Position numbers and translations under genes: made by a program. From Eledone cirrhosa (Eukaryota): DNA of 64,000 nt. Below are positions 26,221 to 64,000 of this stretch, piece after piece. How positions within the stretch are numbered: position 1 is the stretch's first letter; each line of letters begins with the position of its first letter. Under the pieces are notes generated by a model. It was not told the origin of the DNA, ran no database searches, and was given only the letters and a program-made list of their open reading frames with translations. The stretch is taken from assembly GCA_964016885.1 (NCBI GenBank), contig OZ024743.1, positions 311,426,001-311,490,000 on the forward strand. Reading direction: 5' to 3'.

Positions 26221-27015
26221 TTCAACTCTGACAAAGGAACGTTGTACTATTTTCAAGCTTATTAGCTATCGTCAGCAACGTATACCTTCCTGCCAGATTG
26301 TTGAATGCATAAGGTAAGTATATACGTTCAACAATCTGGCAGGAAGGTATACGTTGCTGACGATAGCTAATAAGCTTGAAACTAATACAGCGTTCCTTTG
26401 TCAGTGTTGAACAAATGAGCAACGATGGTTGCTAGACACTACGGCTTAATACGGGATGTTTGTTTACAAACACACCGAGCACTATAATAAATGTTCGGTG
26501 AATCCATACGTACATATATATATGTGTGCATGTATGTATATATATACATACTACTGGACGTCTGTATACATATATGTATGTAAGTGTACATATTTATATT
26601 TATTAACAGCCGTACTAAGAGTGGGAAATGAAATTTCGTTTCGTTTTTTCCGTTTATCGTTTTCGGTGCACCCGGCCGATTAACCCACTCGATATGCAAA
26701 TTGGCTACTCAGCCGTTAATATGCATAAGGTAAGTATATACGTTCAACAATCTGGCAGGAAGGTATACGTTGCTGACGATAGCTAATAAGCTTGAAACTA
26801 GTACAGCGTTCCTTTGTCAGTGTTGAACAAACTAGCAACGATGGTTGCTAGACACTACGGCTTAATACGGGATGTTTGTTTACAAACACACCGAGCATTA
26901 TAATAAATGTTCGGTGAATCCATACGTACATATATATATGTGTGCATGTATGTATATATATATACATACTACTGTACGTCTGTATACATATATGTATGTA
27001 CGTGTACATACTTAT
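26221..27015. mobile_element. Penelope-like pseudo-LTR array: one inverted partial copy + two direct copies (period 416 bp)
   Basis: 26221-26305 inverted; direct repeats start ATGCATAAGG at 26305 and 26721; each carries a hammerhead motif. Confidence 0.8.
26767..26809 (+). ncRNA. Minimal type I hammerhead ribozyme motif
   Basis: Helix I ACGTTG/CAGCGT, core CTGACGA, helix II AGCT-AATA-AGCT, GAAA, palindromic ACTAGT helix III, GUA triplet; sister copies 26351-26393 (+) and 26239-26281 (-). Confidence 0.8.
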
Positions 27016-27370: not shown

Positions 27371-27770
27371 TATATAAGATCAAAAGATGGTTAAAGGAGT
27401 TCCATGTATTTTATTATGCGCATTTCAAAAACAAACATCATCATGCAATAATATTTGTTTTCATCAGATAAAACAGGAGAACATGATATGAAGGCTAAAA
27501 AACACTTCTGGATAGTGCAGTTTTAAATCAACATATCCACAAGTGTTTTTTAGCCTTCATATCATGTTCTCCTGTTTTATCTGATGAAAACACAAATATT
27601 ATTGCATGATGATGTTTGTTTTTGAAATGCGCATAATGAAATACATGGAACTACTTCAACCATCTTTTGATCTTATATATTATGTATACTCCAGTCCTAC
27701 AAACTGTAGAGTGCTTCTTATCCGATATCTGCATTGCTTTATTGTACTACAATAAAACTCACCTCCTACA
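27370..27770. mobile_element. Fold-back Penelope-like element with hammerhead, copy 1
   Basis: ~150-bp arms 27370-27680, 90-bp extension with AATAAA, (TA)n both sides; hammerhead at 27573-27643. Confidence 0.8.
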
Positions 27771-28033: not shown

Positions 28034-28440
28034 ATATATAAGATCAAAAGATGGTTAAAAGAGTTCCATGTATTTTATTATGCGCATTTCAAAAACAAAT
28101 ATCATCATGCAATAACATTTGTGTTTTCATCAGATAAAATAGGAAGACATGATATGAAGGTTAAAATACACTTGTGAATAGTGCAGGTTTTAAATCAACT
28201 GCACTATTCACAAGTGTATTTTAACCTTCATATAATGTCTTCCTATTTTATCTGATGAAAACACAAATGTTATTGCATGATGATATTTGTTTTTGAAATG
28301 CGCATAATAAAATACATGGAACACTTTAACCATCTTTTGATCTTATATATTATGTATACTGCAGTCCTACAAACTGTAGAGTGCTTCTTATCCGATATCT
28401 GCATTGCTTTATTGTACTACAATAAAACTCACCTCCTACA
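28034..28440. mobile_element. Fold-back Penelope-like element with hammerhead, copy 2
   Basis: Same architecture and sequence family as 27370-27770. Confidence 0.8.
28244..28314 (+). ncRNA. Type I hammerhead ribozyme motif
   Basis: Helix I TATTTTAT/ATAAAATA, CTGATGA (28252-58), long helix II, GAAA (28295-98), palindromic ATGCGCAT helix III, AUA triplet. Confidence 0.75.
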
Positions 28441-29721: not shown

Positions 29722-32381
<2,660 letters not shown>

Positions 32382-48092: not shown

Positions 48093-48623
<531 letters not shown>

Positions 48624-50744: not shown

Positions 50745-50753
<9 letters not shown>

Positions 50754-51147
50754 GACGTAAAATAAGAAAATTATAAAAATTAACTTACTTACTAAAATTT
50801 CACTCCAACTAATTAGTCTCTGAAAGGGAATAAACATGGTTTCCGAATGGAACAACATGGAGAATACCTTTCGTCATCAGGAAGTCAATTCTCCATGTTG
50901 TTCCATTCGAAAGGTATTCTCCATGTTGTTCCATTCGGAAACCATGTTTATTCCCTTTCAGAAACTAATTAGTTGGAGTGAAATTTTAGTAAGTAAGTTA
51001 ATTTTTATAATTTTCTTATTTTACGTCTTTCATATAATTTTTCTGCATCCCCTTGCATTGAACCACAAAGTTACTAAGACAAAACCTATATATTTGCTAG
51101 CATAGGTATGCATCTGTATATATATGTTGGTAGATATACTAATTCTT
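50745..51147. mobile_element. Fold-back Penelope-like element in (TA)n
   Basis: Arms 50745-50873 and 50908-51036, 110-bp extension, (TA)n both sides; minus strand has CTGATGA-CGAAAGG..CCATTCG-GAAAC. Confidence 0.75.
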
Positions 51148-57197: not shown

Positions 57198-57288
<91 letters not shown>

Positions 57289-57504
57289 CATTGGTTGTGT
57301 ATACATATGGTTATCCTTTTAATATCCAATTGAGTTCTTATACACGTGGTTAATACCTAACAGGTTTAAATGACCAGCGTGTATATTGTTTTATTTTTGG
57401 GGACAGCGTGTATTTTATCGTTGGGAGGACTGCTGGATTTTCTAATCTACCAGTCTCTTAGCGCTGAGGGAGACCATAATTCTTATATCGATATTATTTG
57501 GGCA

Positions 57505-57628
57505 TCCACTGATGAGTTTATAAGAGCCCGCTTGTGTATAAAACTATGGATTATATACAAGTTTCTACATAACCTGGAAATTATTTATCCCAAATTGTAG
57601 AAATCTTATAACGAAACGGCCGTCTGGG
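57505..57628 (+). ncRNA. Hammerhead ribozyme motif with branched helix II
   Basis: Helix I TCCA/TGGG, CTGATGA (57509-15), helix II GTTTATAAGA/TCTTATAAC, GAAA (57613-16), palindromic ACGGCCGT, GUC triplet; lies between (TA)n tracts. Confidence 0.8.
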
Positions 57629-57827
57629 AGGAAAGAGATTTTTATTTAATAATGTCTCATATAAAATAGTACAACCATCTATCCACGAAATACTGATTAG
57701 TTAGCACCCCAAACACTAAATTGGGATAATACTTAGGTATATCCTAATGTTTGTTGAATGAGATGGAGTTGGTCGGAGTATCGCTTAAGTCTTTCTCTGT
57801 TTATGTATTGTATTGTATATATATATA

Positions 57828-58870: not shown

Positions 58871-58901
58871 TACACATACACATACACACACACGATAACA
58901 A

Positions 58902-61900
58902 TTAACAGTGCTGCGATCGAATGTGGCTTTTTAGCCCAGCCAATGATCTAAAATGTCTTGCACAGAGTTGGCACCCAAAACATTCACTGGGAGTAGCCGG
59001 CAGTGGTTGGAGTTCATGTACTTTTGCATGTCGTTTGAGCCCTCCTGCTGATTTACATTCTCTACCACAAGCTTGGCAGGCATTATGAGTAGCATCTGCA
59101 ACAGCAGCCTGGTAGTCAACCACTGGTCTCACTTTATGACTGTGAAGATGACTTTTGAGTCCAGCTTTGCTGAGGTGGAGTCTCGCACAGACATTGCATG
59201 TCAACGCCATAGTAGGACCTTCATTGTCTGGAAATGCAACAATAATGTCCTTCCACACATCTCTCTTTACTTTCTCGTATGCGATTCGAGATGCCTCAAA
59301 GGCAACTTTCACCTCATATACAGTCTTTCTCCATTTATTACGATCAGTAGCAACATTTTCCCATGTATCATCAGAGATGTTAGCGTCTTCAAAGAGGCTT
59401 TCAACGAATCCTTATACCTGTTTTCGTTTATGTGGAGGTCGTTTTCCTTTAACTAGCTCTCCGTAAAAGAGTTGCTTTGGTATTCTAGAATCCTTCATCC
59501 TGGCAAGGTGACCACTCCAACTGAGTCTTTGCTTAAGCACAAGAGCTTCTATACTGTCACACAGAGAGCTTTCCAAAATCTCGACATCACATGACGTCCC
59601 TCCAGTGAACGCCATGGATCCGTCTGAGACACATCTGATGGAAACGCTCCAATTGTTTAAGGTGGTGTCAATATGTTACCCAGGTCTCGCAGGCATAAAG
59701 AAAAGAAGAGAGTACATGGAACCTTGTACACCTTTACCTTTGTCTTCTTGCATATGTCTCGCCGACCCCAAAGTCGCCTTTCTAGCTTTCCGAAAGCATC
59801 ACTTGGTTTCCTAATCCTGAGTGGAATTTCATTATCAAGGTTGCTGTATCGATTGACAGTGCTTCCCAGGTAGACAAACTGATCAACCACTCCAAGTCGT
59901 TTACCATACACATAGATATTTGGCTCATTGTACTGCTTACCAGGGGCAGGTTGGTACATGACGACGGTTTTCTTGAGACTGACAGTCAATCCAAGGGCAG
60001 TGCAAGCATCAGAAAATGCATTTAAAATGTGCTGCATATCACTCTCTGTGTGCGCTACAAGATCGCAATTATCTGCATACAAGAGGTCTCTTATGATTGA
60101 TGTAAATACTTTTGTTATTGCAGCAAAGCGCCTGATGTTAAATATGCTGCCTGAGGTTCGATATTGGATGTAAACACCATGCTCGCAATTCCTGAATGCA
60201 ATATAGAAAACCATTGCAAAGTATATGGCGAACAGGATCGGTACTGGAATATCCCCCTGTTTCACTCCATTTTTTACTGAGCTAGGCTCCGACATGTTAC
60301 CTCTGAAATTAACCCAAGCCTTCATATCGTCATGGAAAGTCTTAACCAAAGCAAGGAACTTATCAGGGCAACACAGTTTCTGGAGAACCTTCCACAATGC
60401 ATTTCTGTTAACAGTCTCGAAAGCTTTTGTCAGATCGACAAAAACCTGATACAGATCCAAACCTTGTTTCATGCACTTCTCCTGGAGATGTCTAGATGAG
60501 AAGATCATATCAGTAGTGCCGCGTCCAGCACAAAAACCAGATTGGCTTTCAGGAAGAACACAATCTGCAATGTGTGTCAGCAGAACGATCCAGAAGCACC
60601 CTACATACAATTTTTCCTACGACAGAAAGCAATGATATACCTCAATAGTTTCCACAATCATTCTTGTTACCCTTTCCCTTGTACAAGACCACCATTACTG
60701 CATCTCTCCAGTCCTCAGGTACGGAATCACTATCCTGCCAAACAAAGAGTGAAGATGTCACAGAAGTCTCTCACACCATATTGTAAGAGCTCTGCATGTA
60801 TGCCATCCATACCTGGAGAACTTCCACTGTTCCACTTCGAGATAGCTACTGCAACCTCCACAAGCGTCGGTGGTCCTGCGAGAGCTACTTTCACGGGATT
60901 TTCAGGAATGAGATTGAGGAAATCTTCATTGACGACAGACGACTAATTCAAAAGTTCATCAAAGTGCTCTCGCCACCTTCGTAGAATTCCTTGTGAGTCA
61001 CGAAGAGGTTCCTTGCCATCCTTGCTGCGAAGTGGTGTCACCAGAGAAGAAGACGGTCCATAAACTTCACGCAAGAGACTGTACAACAGCTTTGTGTTAT
61101 TGGAATCTGATGCAGCTTGTATCTCATCAGCCTTCTCACTCCACAACTTATCCTTCATCTGAGAAAGACTCCGCCTAACACGTGATTTCACATCCCTGAG
61201 TTCCTTATGCAACATATTCTTCTCCTGTGGTTTTGCTGTCAAGTAGCGTGACAGAGCACGCCTCTTATCAGCCAACAAGTCATCTATATGTTCATCATTC
61301 TCATTAAACCAGTCTTGATGTTTTCTCTGCACCAATCCCAGAACACGCCTGTCTACATCATAAACCGACTTTTTAAGGGTCGGCCAATCGTCACCAAGAT
61401 CTGCAACATGCATCTCTTCTCGCAATGTCCTCTTCACAATTTTATCTCTAAGACGAGCAGCATTCAATCTTCTGGGCAGGGTAACACCAGGAGCCCGGAT
61501 TTTACATTTAGCGATTAGTTTCACTTTTGCGCGTACCAGGCGGTGGTCTGTCCAGCACTCAGCTCCACGAAGTCTGCGCATCACGTCTGTCACGCATCCT
61601 GACAAGGACGTAATCCAAAAGATGCCATTCCTTAGATGCAGGATGCATCCATGTGGTCTAAAATTTGTTCTTTTGCTGGAACATGGTGTTCGTAACACAC
61701 AGATCCAGCTCTTCACACATCTGCAGCAGGAGCATACCATTGTTGTTACACTTTCCCACCCCATGCCTTCCGATTACATTCCATGCGTTAAAATCCCTAC
61801 CCACTCTAGCATTAAAGTCACCAAGCACGATGACCTTACCTGCCTGAGGGATATTTCTTAAAACACCTTTCAAGTCATGGTAAAAAGACACTTTTTCTTC

Positions 61901-62300
61901 ATCGACAGAATTCATAGTTGGAGCATACACACTCATCAGGGTCGCATATCTTCCTTTGTCCACTGGGAATTCTTCTAATAGAGCAGTCTTAACAGCAAAT
62001 GCTACCCCAGCCTCTCTTCTGATTCCTTCATCTCTTCCTTTCCAGAAGAATGTATATTCTCCACAAAATTCTATTAGATGACCATCTCCAGCTAACCTCG
62101 TCTCAGATAAAGCTACGATGTCAAGATCGTAACGTCGAAGCTCCTTTGCAACAAGAACGGTCCTTCGTTCAGGACGTTACAAGGAATCCCTGTCAAGCAG
62201 CGTACATACGTTCCAGCAGCCAATATTAAATGCTTTGTTTGGCTCTATTACAGTGGCACGATGACGAGCGGCCCCAGGCTGTGATACCCTGGGGCACTTG
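58902..62300 (-). pseudogene. Decayed near-full-length RTE-clade LINE (APE-RT-C2H2)
   Basis: IGCWNV, SVYAPT, LGDFNA, WTDH (APE); PESQSGF, FVDLTKAF, GVKQG, YADN, FVYLGS (RT); three C-terminal C2H2 fingers; many frameshifts. Confidence 0.9.
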
Positions 62301-62389
62301 CCCTTATTACCAATTATCTCTTTTGTTCCAGAACCCTTATTGCCAATTATCTCTTTTATATTGTTTTGGAACATCATTGAATTGGGGAA

Positions 62390-62424
<35 letters not shown>

Positions 62425-64000
62425 TTTCATTTATTGGCCACAAGGGCCGACATATATGGGACAATACAAAAGACTAGGACAGTGGGGTTTTACAAAAAAA
62501 TCGAGTAAACAATATGAATCACAATAACAAAGTAACAAGAAAATTACAAGAAAAAATTCCCCAATAGGGGGATGACCACCTGGGGTTCGCTCAGGTACCC
62601 CACCAATCCTGAACGACATGACGCTTCGAGAGCACCCAGGAAGGGCACCTCCTCTCCTCCTCAAATTTACCTACCTACAGCCGCATGACCAGAGTAGGCC
62701 CACTCACACGGGCCATTCTCGCCACATTCACCCACCTTTCAGCAAATGTACTGGGGGGCAGCACTTCTCTCTCCACCCTCACCTTCCTTTCCAAGTGAAA
62801 CTTGAAAAAGTTGATGAGCGATTGGCCGAAGAGAAAAGTGTCTGTCTTCAGTCCTTTCAACCTCGTCCACCATACAACTTCTTTCGCTACTGCCACCAGA
62901 CAGAGGAAAATTGCCTGCCCTTCCTGGCCAAAAGAAGGCGGCGGATCGATCTTCACTATGGACTCGGCCGATAGCCGGATCCGTTCTACACGCGACAACA
63001 GCTGTTCAACATAACTCCACAAGTCAGTAATGCACGGACACTGGACAAGTGCGTGCAGAACGGTTTCGTCGCTCTGCGCGCATCTCGGGCAGGTCCGTCT
63101 GACAGCACTTCCGTGCCTGTAGAGTTTATCTCGAACCGGCAGTGCCCCCGGTAGCACTGCTAAACGAGGGATTTTTGGAAATTATCCATCGTCCCCGGCT
63201 CGAAAGTCCTCCGGTACAGACTGGTTAGTTTGACTTCGTTCACTCCCAGAGCCTCTCCGAGTGCGTCGTTGCACTTGCCCACCACTAATCCTATATAGAA
63301 CTCGAGAGTGGAAGTTCCACTGACCGCATTTCCCGCCTGGTAGAGGGCAGTGAGTGCTTGGCAACATTCCAGATGCCAGTCACCCAGTCTCGGTCTCTTT
63401 TTGACATAGGACTGCAGCTCAGTCAAAGAAACGAGCTGCGGAAAGGCCCGTCTGACAAACGGCGACTACACCTGTTCACCGTTTAGGTAGAATATCTGGA
63501 GATGCCGCAGCCTCAGCGCGTGCCTGCGCATCATTAGCCACGGCATGCCCAGCCCTCCACATAGAGGGTGCTGGCAGCAGATGGGCCGTCTCACCAGCGG
63601 AACCTGACCCCTCCACAAGAATTTGAAGAGGAGCCGCTCCAAGATGGCGACACGCGAACGGGGGCAAGGGACGACGGTCAGACGGTAGTAGATGACGGAC
63701 GCGATGTACACGTTCGCCACCTCCGCCCGACCTTTCAGTGATTTCTGGGTGAGACTGGCTACCCTGCCCGTCACGTCGTCCTAATTATTATCCACCTGGA
63801 GGTCTGGCCCGAACCAAACCCCTGGCAACTTTACCGGTCCGTCCGTCCAGCGCCTAACGACGCTGTTGGACGGCATGGACTTGCCTCTCCAGGTGCCGAG
63901 TCGCAAGCCTACCGACTTTTCCGGGTTAAGTTTTGCTCCCGTCAACCTTTCATATTCCTCCAATAAGTTGCCGACCACTTCGATTTCTGAGGTGTCCGAC
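62390..64000 (-). mobile_element. Decayed fifth copy of the Tx1-like element (3' part; continues beyond window)
   Basis: Fragments homologous to the ORF2 C-terminus with stops and deletions; same 3'UTR and (ATT)11 tail. Confidence 0.95.

Follow-up and report, generated by a model that had tools for sequence, protein, structure and literature searches.

The window, that is, the whole stretch of 64,000 nt of the Eledone cirrhosa genome that was analysed (assembly GCA_964016885.1, contig OZ024743.1, positions 311,426,001 to 311,490,000 of the forward strand), contains at 57505-57628 a hammerhead ribozyme motif embedded in a 5'-truncated copy of a non-coding repeat. Judged from its sequence, this is a real and maintained hammerhead for which cleavage is a prediction only. 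The hammerhead kind to which it belongs, that of the Penelope-like elements (PLEs), is already known, and the structural variant, in which helix II opens into a junction of two hairpins, is new. The segments of the motif are the following:

57500-57503, plus strand: GGGC tetramer, one base 5' of helix I; complements the GCCC linker and does not vary in lineages A1-A4
57505-57508, plus strand: 5' strand of helix I, UCCA, pairing with UGGG at 57625-57628
57509-57515, plus strand: catalytic core strand CUGAUGA (C3 to A9), in which only N7 differs between lineages (U, C, A)
57516-57525, plus strand: 5' strand of the helix II closing stem, GUUUAUAAGA, read as G10.1 UU[U]AUAAGA with one bulged U
57526-57530, plus strand: junction linker GCCCG, with GCCC in 13 of 13 aligned sequences
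57531-57561, plus strand: hairpin A, an 11-bp stem including one G-U pair and a 9-nt loop
57562-57603, plus strand: hairpin B, an 8-bp stem and a 26-nt loop; the loop keeps UAA..UGG..CCCAA, with an inner UGG/CCA pairing
57604-57612, plus strand: 3' strand of the closing stem, UCUUAUAAC (i.e., UCUUAUAA followed by C11.1)
57613-57616, plus strand: core strand GAAA (G12 to A15.1)
57617-57622, plus strand: helix III, the palindrome CGGCCG, for which a fold-back on itself is impossible
57623-57624, plus strand: U16.1 (57623) and C17 (57624) of the GUC site; predicted cut between 57624 and 57625
57625-57628, plus strand: 3' strand of helix I, UGGG

The core agrees with that of a type I hammerhead (CUGANGA, GAAA, and U16.1 followed by H17, where H is not G). 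The initial annotation of this DNA had read here a full hammerhead core, the CGGCCG palindrome and the GUC site, and had described helix II as enclosing two hairpins. All of the former are in place, and the hairpins are seen both in the letters and in the predicted fold. In the closing stem GUUUAUAAGA/UCUUAUAAC, which has 9 bp, one bulged U is required that was left unmentioned there. Helix I of this lineage (A1) is open and has 4 bp, and helix II takes up 97 nt between the core strands, the 9-bp stem being followed by a two-hairpin junction of 78 nt.

The motif at 57505-57628 is not a product of chance. A descriptor composed of the core, the closing stem, the palindromic helix III, the U-H dinucleotide and helix I matched seven times in the window, and in two cases helix II was long. 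The corresponding mean for 100 shuffles with preserved dinucleotides was 0.04 matches (maximum 1), none with a long arm. Folded alone, the helix II domain forms exactly the stem and the two hairpins, i.e., a three-way junction, with identical minimum free energy (MFE) and centroid structures (-23.1 kcal/mol, z of about -4.5 against shuffles). The fold of the whole 146 nt around the motif is unremarkable (z only -0.95).

The repeat that carries the motif comprises these features:

57198-57275, no strand assigned: (TA)n microsatellite upstream of the element copy, a target-type sequence (Tandem Repeats Finder)
57280-57810, plus strand: 5'-truncated copy of the 764-nt non-coding repeat, lineage A1, about unit positions 180-764 (BLAST to the tandem-defined reference unit; 30-locus alignment)
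57625-57810, plus strand: tail of 186 nt, from the predicted cut to the fixed 3' end; with the hammerhead, the best-conserved part of the unit
57743-57766, plus strand: 24-nt tail motif; the reference copies of A1 and A3 agree in every base, A4 hardly varies there, and the window copy is one base off

The A1 unit of 764 nt has no open reading frame (ORF) and was defined from two loci with head-to-tail copies; in its coordinates the hammerhead starts at 463 and the cut falls after 578. The 5' border of the window copy is blurred by TA/TG repeats, and beyond its sharp 3' end (...GTTTATGTATTG) lies what remains of a (TA)n tract. The alignment of 30 loci likewise has a sharp 3' end, ...GTTTATGTATTG, set against (TA)n, and ragged 5' ends. 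In the 3.0-Gb genome, a first look gave 1,603 candidates for the 146-nt hammerhead stretch, the 40 scored of these being 99-100% identical, and 2,294 for the A1 tail. Exact matches number 334 for a 32-mer of the tail (reversed control 0) and 4,253 for a degenerate 23-mer of the 3' half of the hammerhead (control 0).

From 100 listed of the 334 places of the tail 32-mer, sorted by position and not by score, 99 distinct A1 copies were obtained. Their 5' ends are scattered and most sampled copies are flanked by (TA)n. Eight copies extend to unit position 1, and each of the eight has a portion of the 3' end of another unit in front of it; tandem pairs, about 720-770 nt apart, occur only four times among the 100 listed places. 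The properties of a non-autonomous PLE, namely a fixed 3' end, 5' truncation, tail pieces and insertion into a microsatellite, are all present. The partial tandems and upstream 3'-end pieces could correspond to pseudo-long terminal repeat features, and no coding partner with the motif was found among the loci sampled.

At least six diverged lineages of the repeat exist, all of which keep the closing stem, the GCCC linker and hairpins A and B:

A1: helix III CGGCCG, site GUC; the window copy
A2: helix III CGAUCG, site GUA; bulged U lost, two A-U pairs changed to G-U
A3: helix III CAAUUG, site GUU; unit of 998 nt
A4: helix III ACG[AGACGUC]CGU in 30 of 30 copies, site GUC; unit of 707 nt, A-U at 10.1/11.1
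A5 and A6: further variants, revealed by the degenerate 23-mer of the hammerhead 3' half

A2 has at least 40 copies, which are 95-97% alike. A3 (1,350 candidates) was found by chance in an arbitrary 400-kb sample and is 66% identical to A1 across most of the unit. Its hammerhead has the same 97-nt helix II, with a U.U start at 10.1/11.1, a U-A pair replacing A1's A-U and the GCCC kept; hairpin A is almost wholly different in sequence from that of A1, and hairpin B is nearly unchanged. Among the 40 listed matches of A3 (the query's own place included), 31 are 100% identical over 161 nt. This suggests an amplification that is very recent or ongoing, in a lineage that is probably still active. 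The 30 further identical copies (query L249:8132-8269) are spread over many chromosomes. A4 (1,292 candidates) shows G-C for A-U in the closing stem and C-G for U-A in hairpin B and in helix I; the helix I change is found in A5 as well.

Across the lineages, position 17 is C, A or U, never G, and otherwise the core varies only at N7. The pair at 10.1/11.1 is G-C in A1 and A2, and the bulged U of the helix II stem is absent in A2-A5. The helix II domain is constant at 95-97 nt in A1-A4, and the units, of 707-998 nt, are 59-68% identical.

In A1-A3 the helix III palindrome is kept via paired changes (CGGCCG, CGAUCG and CAAUUG). The same is seen within A1, where six of the seven copies with a G-to-A change in the centre also have the matching C-to-T (CGGCCG to CGAUCG). 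In its helix III, A1 agrees with the minimal PLE hammerheads, in which this helix is absent or a small palindrome; A4 and A5 depart from the bare palindrome, with helix III of the form ACG[loop]CGU and a loop of AGACGUC or AGU (A4: L314:1513-1653 and 29 other copies; A5: L344, L349, L350 and L351). Such a helix would close within one molecule, so that A4 and A5 may no longer need a dimer. A pattern with helix III as C-YNNR-G plus the same 3' strand gave no matches.

A covariance model from genomic copies had been proposed in the initial annotation as a check, and covariation does exist in the alignments that were made with such a model built on A1. With eight sequences from four lineages, 8 of the 32 pairs were changed on both sides, which none of 500 shuffles reached (slid controls 0-1). 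Ten sequences raised this to 9/32 (0/500 shuffles, slid controls 0-1), and with 13 sequences 12 of the 32 pairs were changed on both sides and still paired (0/500 shuffles, slid controls 0-2). In detail, these 12 fall in helix I (two), the helix II stem (three), hairpin A (six of its 11 pairs) and hairpin B (one, U-A to C-G). RNAalifold, applied to the same alignments, returned helix I, the helix II stem and both hairpins, and helix III only with ten sequences. The preservation of pairing does not extend to the outermost pair of hairpin B or to the pair that closes the loop of hairpin A. Within 109 distinct A1 copies, helix II shows no covariation, since this family is too young and its copies are too alike, and the sole two-sided change is the one at the centre of helix III. 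In the three-way alignment of A1, A3 and A4, the share of invariant positions is 62% for the hammerhead and 57% for the tail, as against 34% for the remainder of the unit. The majority copy does not look inactive; an inactive consensus is what the initial annotation had named as speaking against the motif. Because the two-sided changes include both extra hairpins, the branched arm is to be regarded as a maintained structure. Within the limits of the alignments, compensatory changes support helix I, the helix II stem and the two hairpins.

A further hammerhead with a branched helix II lies in the same window:

48195-48291, plus strand: hammerhead of family B, with a 78-nt branched helix II and helix III CUCGAG, in a 5'-truncated copy of another (TA)n-inserted repeat (about 48157-48445)

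Its helix II is predicted to form a stem and two hairpins (z of about -2.9), with an A on each side of the stem. The family has 2,914 candidates of 96-97% identity with a fixed 3' end at (TA)n, and the motifs at 48195 and 57505 both sit between (TA)n blocks. The description given earlier, of a motif at 48191 with an unrelated sequence and the same design and (TA)n context, holds: the motif is real, and BLAST finds no similarity to family A (the lineages above). A 20-nt resemblance between the two families near the linker, seen by eye, was dropped as unsupported for their homology.

Enlarged arms are also found elsewhere in the genome. In family C, helix III is CAAUUG, and the two diverged members, with 82 and 79 nt in helix II, differ in helix I and the closing stem in ways that preserve the pairs. 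Unrelated families of the same genome have a helix II of 50-52, 61, 78-83 and 91 nt. In the arbitrary 400-kb sample, the 13 motifs have helix II lengths of 12, 12, 14, 14, 27, 30, 31, 33, 35, 50, 79, 82 and 97 nt, i.e., at least 50 nt in four of the 13; a rough extrapolation from this sample gives tens of thousands of hammerhead motifs per genome. In two cases (L043 and L257) the long arm folds as one long hairpin. Of the recurrent class of branched-helix-II hammerheads that had been postulated, the recurrence of an enlarged helix II stands (the A lineages, B and C), and the branching does not extend to all long arms.

Five more PLE-type hammerhead motifs are present in the window, at 26773-26803 (plus), 27415-27467 (minus), 27581-27635 (plus), 28079-28133 (minus) and 28252-28306 (plus). 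Of these, the last four are arranged between (TA)n blocks as two inverted pairs, head to head, and have helix III UGCGCA, a helix II of 34-36 nt and a non-canonical A/U start of stem II. At 50750-51035, two (TA)n blocks enclose a long inverted repeat that contains on the minus strand a hammerhead-like core with GAGA for GAAA; its relatives form a family (L056, L096 and L250) in which helix II has 50-52 nt and helix III is CUAAUUAG.

The remainder of the window is occupied by other repeats. Three head-to-tail copies of a long interspersed nuclear element (LINE) type fill positions 1-20506 with a period of 5840 nt and ORFs of 642 and 1150 aa, the latter with endonuclease/exonuclease/phosphatase, RVT_1 and zf-RVT domains. 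A (TA)n tract of 2.6 kb extends over 29722-32312, and the window contains 200 N. Just 3' of the A1 copy, on the opposite strand and unrelated to it, a decayed LINE (58900-63200, minus) retains APE, RVT_1, zf-RVT and C2H2 finger pieces.

Penelope-like elements are very abundant in this genome, where a first look for GIY-YIG (PF01541) gave 10,595 candidates. Three of the ten sampled PLE loci with a long ORF carry a hammerhead (L046, L047 and L051), in all cases with a compact helix II of 12 nt; in L046 it is placed about 390 nt 3' of the ORF end. As for the target, (TA)n is the preferred insertion site of the Naiad and Neptune PLEs in the accessible part of Craig et al. 2021 (PMC8557442).

The preferred reading, to which a probability of about 0.7 is assigned, is that of a type I hammerhead of the PLE kind that has a conserved three-way junction as its helix II and is likely to cleave itself after C57624 when two copies pair via the palindromic helix III. 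The palindrome cannot close alone, and two copies must therefore pair for the active form. Together with A15.1/U16.1, CGGCCG is an 8-nt palindrome, for which cofolding predicts an 8-bp pairing with a second copy. The cofold of two copies reaches -73.1 kcal/mol versus 2 x -29.6 kcal/mol, and the intermolecular ACGGCCGU helix forms. In Cervera and de la Pena 2014 (PMC4209133), as far as the accessible part of that paper goes, PLE hammerheads are characterised by a short helix I and by a helix III reduced to a minimal palindrome, and the minimal forms are thought to act as dimers and to cut poorly alone. The motif works like a minimal PLE hammerhead and is most likely derived from one.

Transcripts of tandem or partial-tandem copies, or two separate RNAs, would form the dimeric active fold and cut. 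The fixed 3' end, the 5' truncation, the partial tandems and the microsatellite targets, all of them habits published for PLEs, lead to the reading of the repeat as a non-autonomous passenger of PLEs. This status is inferred, as the loci sampled yielded no coding element that shares the hammerhead or the tail. The hammerhead and the 186-nt tail would constitute the 3' module recognised by the mobilising reverse transcriptase, copying would begin at the end of the tail, and the A/U-rich start of the next unit (AAUAUAUA) would make its junction with (TA)n ambiguous. Within this module the branch, above all the GCCC linker and hairpin B with its conserved loop, most likely acts as a scaffold or as a site of protein docking and recognition, and would aid the folding of the core. 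There is a precedent for a protein-assisted role of extra RNA structure in the Anolis Poseidon element PAc, where the hammerhead depends on the element's own protein for cutting (Frangieh et al. 2024, PMC11167929). Of the features that could bear on the reverse-transcriptase binding or tertiary contacts suggested for the extra domain in the initial annotation, the hairpin B loop, the GCCC linker and the complementary GGGC upstream of helix I are conserved, and covariation is seen in none of them.

The GGGC at 57500-57503 and the GCCC linker may engage in a tertiary pairing or in an alternative one. If tertiary, the pairing could keep helix I next to helix II, much as pseudoknots link the two stems in other hammerheads (PMC3088659, in its accessible part). 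Equally, the pairing could belong to an inhibitory alternative fold, as it forms in the MFE structure predicted for the dimer.

The 5' ends of the 99 copies were compared with the predicted cut. Thirteen of them lie at unit positions 574-589 (-5 to +10 of the cut), two exactly at 579 (+1). Copies longer than one unit start at 574-587 in three of 12 cases in the position-sorted sample and in three of six in the BLAST-top sample; such copies fit a circular or a tandem template equally well. The 5' ends near the cut are suggestive only, a hint of cleavage in vivo and not a proof. An equal cluster, 15/99, lies at 323-343, so the background of 5' ends is not uniform. This second cluster (loci L083-L182), as strong as the near-cut one, possibly marks a second processing site or a structure at which the reverse transcriptase halts.

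Several observations weigh against the reading of a cleaving, PLE-mobilised dimeric hammerhead. Rfam at gathering thresholds has no match in the window, and Hammerhead_1 (RF00163) aligns to 57504-57630 with only 17.4 bits (E 0.37, cut-off 34); as this match covers the full model (1-45), the 97-nt helix II insert is the evident cause of the low score. The hammerhead-compatible fold of the monomer has -23.4 kcal/mol versus -29.6 kcal/mol for the MFE structure, which pairs part of the core. The alignments behind the covariation were made with a model that itself derives from the proposed structure, and they draw on about six lineages of one genome; the model alignment also misplaces A9 in A3, where the true 10.1/11.1 is U.U and not A-U. 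GGGC and GCCC never vary, hence their pairing has no covariation support. Most genomic copies are solo, which means that a second hammerhead in cis is usually absent, and the 5' ends show no sharp pile-up at the predicted cut, given the cluster at 323-343. In PAc, the hammerhead is unnecessary for insertion in vitro (PMC11167929).

To these points must be added the outcome of the search for a partner. The 22 sampled PLE loci have no similarity to families A or B by BLAST. Three PLE ORF fragments beside A-lineage copies (L353-L355, extended) have no A-type motif according to a model of our own and no Rfam hammerhead match at E up to 1, and among their three ORFs only one has a Pfam match, GIY-YIG. 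Among the sampled PLE loci and the A-adjacent ORFs, no autonomous element with an A hammerhead or tail was found.

Three other explanations were considered. It is somewhat unlikely that the branch is a tolerated passenger, in which case helix II would need only a stable closing stem and the hairpins would have no role in cleavage or mobilisation. Engineered hammerheads tolerate aptamers on stem II, and in this genome the lengths of helix II form a continuum (12, 13, 14, 20, 26-36, 50-52, 61, 78-83, 91 and 97 nt), with some long arms unbranched (L043 and L257); hairpin A has been almost wholly rewritten in A3, and an A3-like copy (L346) is without most of it. A mere spacer, however, has no need of a hairpin B loop and a GCCC linker that are conserved in sequence, the domain remains fixed at 95-97 nt in A1-A4 despite the different lengths and low identity of their units, and compensatory changes preserve both hairpins. 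That the branch is instead a switch, with GGGC pairing with GCCC to trap the core in an inactive state and cleavage restricted to dimers or to the time after protein remodelling, is improbable. The invariance of the two tetramers in A1-A4, the loss of the helix II closing stem in the dimer MFE structure when the 5' GGGC pairs with GCCC, the position of the active monomer fold 6 kcal/mol above the MFE and the protein requirement of the Anolis hammerhead (PMC11167929) are all consistent with it. Against this, the pairing has only 4 bp and no covariation, family C has no such complement and family B one of only 3 bp (as read from the sequences), and the same tetramers could equally make a stabilising tertiary contact in the active fold.

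A dead relic, i.e., a former hammerhead that no longer cuts and is carried along by the amplification of the repeat, is highly improbable. Published minimal PLE hammerheads do cut poorly in vitro (PMC4209133), the PAc hammerhead is dispensable as mentioned above, and Naiad PLEs are reported, in the part of PMC8557442 that is accessible, to thrive without canonical hammerheads. A relic would nevertheless be hard to reconcile with core letters that, except for the free N7, are unchanged in lineages whose units are only 59-68% identical, with a position 17 that is only ever C, A or U, with helices I and II that change by compensating pairs, and with a helix III palindrome that has been rewritten twice and never lost.

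A bolder extension of this reading, distinctly doubtful at present, would make stem II a natural sensor: the junction (hairpin B loop and GCCC) would dock the PLE reverse transcriptase, which would fold the ribozyme and switch on dimeric cleavage, and the expanded-arm forms would represent about one third of this genome's hammerheads, invisible to Rfam and to the usual stem/loop descriptors. If true, published counts of PLE hammerheads would be underestimates, including those of clades reported to be without them.

The hammerheads of PLEs and retrozymes are known, and the usual descriptors expect a short hairpin as stem II. The lineages described here indicate that a hammerhead can carry a branched stem II domain of about 80 nt over long evolutionary time, kept by compensatory changes. 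Expanded arms are common in at least one animal genome, with four of 13 sampled motifs and one superfamily of more than 4,000 copies, and the curated threshold of Rfam misses them. The superfamily lends itself to tests of hammerhead cleavage that is assisted by protein or depends on a dimer, and the reverse transcriptase could recognise it by the module of hammerhead and tail.

In the parts of the literature that were searched, no branched helix II is described in animal or PLE hammerheads, so that the architecture, which the initial annotation had allowed might be catalogued already, has no description there. The comparisons that follow take PMC4209133, PMC7229834, the 2026 report on retrozymes, PMC8557442 and PMC3088659 in their accessible parts. 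The motif is like the minimal PLE hammerheads (PMC4209133) in its type I topology, short open helix I (4-5 bp), palindromic helix III, G10.1-C11.1 pair (A1 and A2), very many copies and tandem or partial-tandem setting. It is unlike them in helix II, which in the minimal forms is a plain 6-8-bp hairpin, one unpaired base separating 9 from 10.1, whereas here a 9-bp stem leads to a 78-nt junction, the 97-nt three-way junction as a whole being no simple helix II, and A1 has no unpaired base between 9 and 10.1. It also differs in that no coding PLE with this motif was found among the sampled loci.

With the metazoan non-LTR retrozymes (Cervera and de la Pena 2020, PMC7229834; Li, Clavereau and Pollet 2026, preprint, 10.64898/2026.07.22.740005), the repeat shares a non-coding unit with a type I hammerhead, a proposed mobilisation by PLEs and the coexistence of monomers, dimers and multimers. 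It is not a typical retrozyme. Retrozyme units measure 150-450 bp and form long tandem arrays (PMC7229834), in contrast to the units of 707-998 nt (764, 998 and 707 nt for A1, A3 and A4) and the mostly solo copies, 5'-truncated at (TA)n, found here. Moreover, retrozymes have a canonical hammerhead with contacts between loops 1 and 2 (PMC7229834), and helix III is minimal in the present case.

PAc is the one PLE studied biochemically; its reverse transcription begins within the RNA, at a point about 90 nt 3' of the cut made by the hammerhead (PMC11167929). The two systems are alike in having the hammerhead shortly 5' of an internal start of reverse transcription, which corresponds to the fixed 3' end of the inserted copies. 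The distance from the cut to this start is about 90 nt in PAc versus 186 nt here, and the target is AT-rich DNA versus (TA)n. The PAc hammerhead has a compact stem II and overlaps the start of the ORF, unlike the branched 97-nt helix II in a non-coding unit.

The hammerhead variants of Perreault et al. 2011 (PMC3088659) resemble the present lineages in their variable stem lengths, in U10.1-U11.1 starts (compare A3) and in pseudoknots between stems I and II; the emphasis there is on a short stem II, down to 1-2 bp, and stem II is branched here. The Naiad elements (PMC8557442) provide a further parallel with their (TA)n preference and their 'HHR_core' and 'HHR_half_core' cases, in which the halves of the core are too far apart (35-50 nt) for stem/loop descriptors. 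No hammerhead fold is given for these in the accessible part of that paper, in contrast to the halves described here, which are 97 nt apart and enclose a fold supported by covariation. The Naiad core halves may be the same phenomenon.

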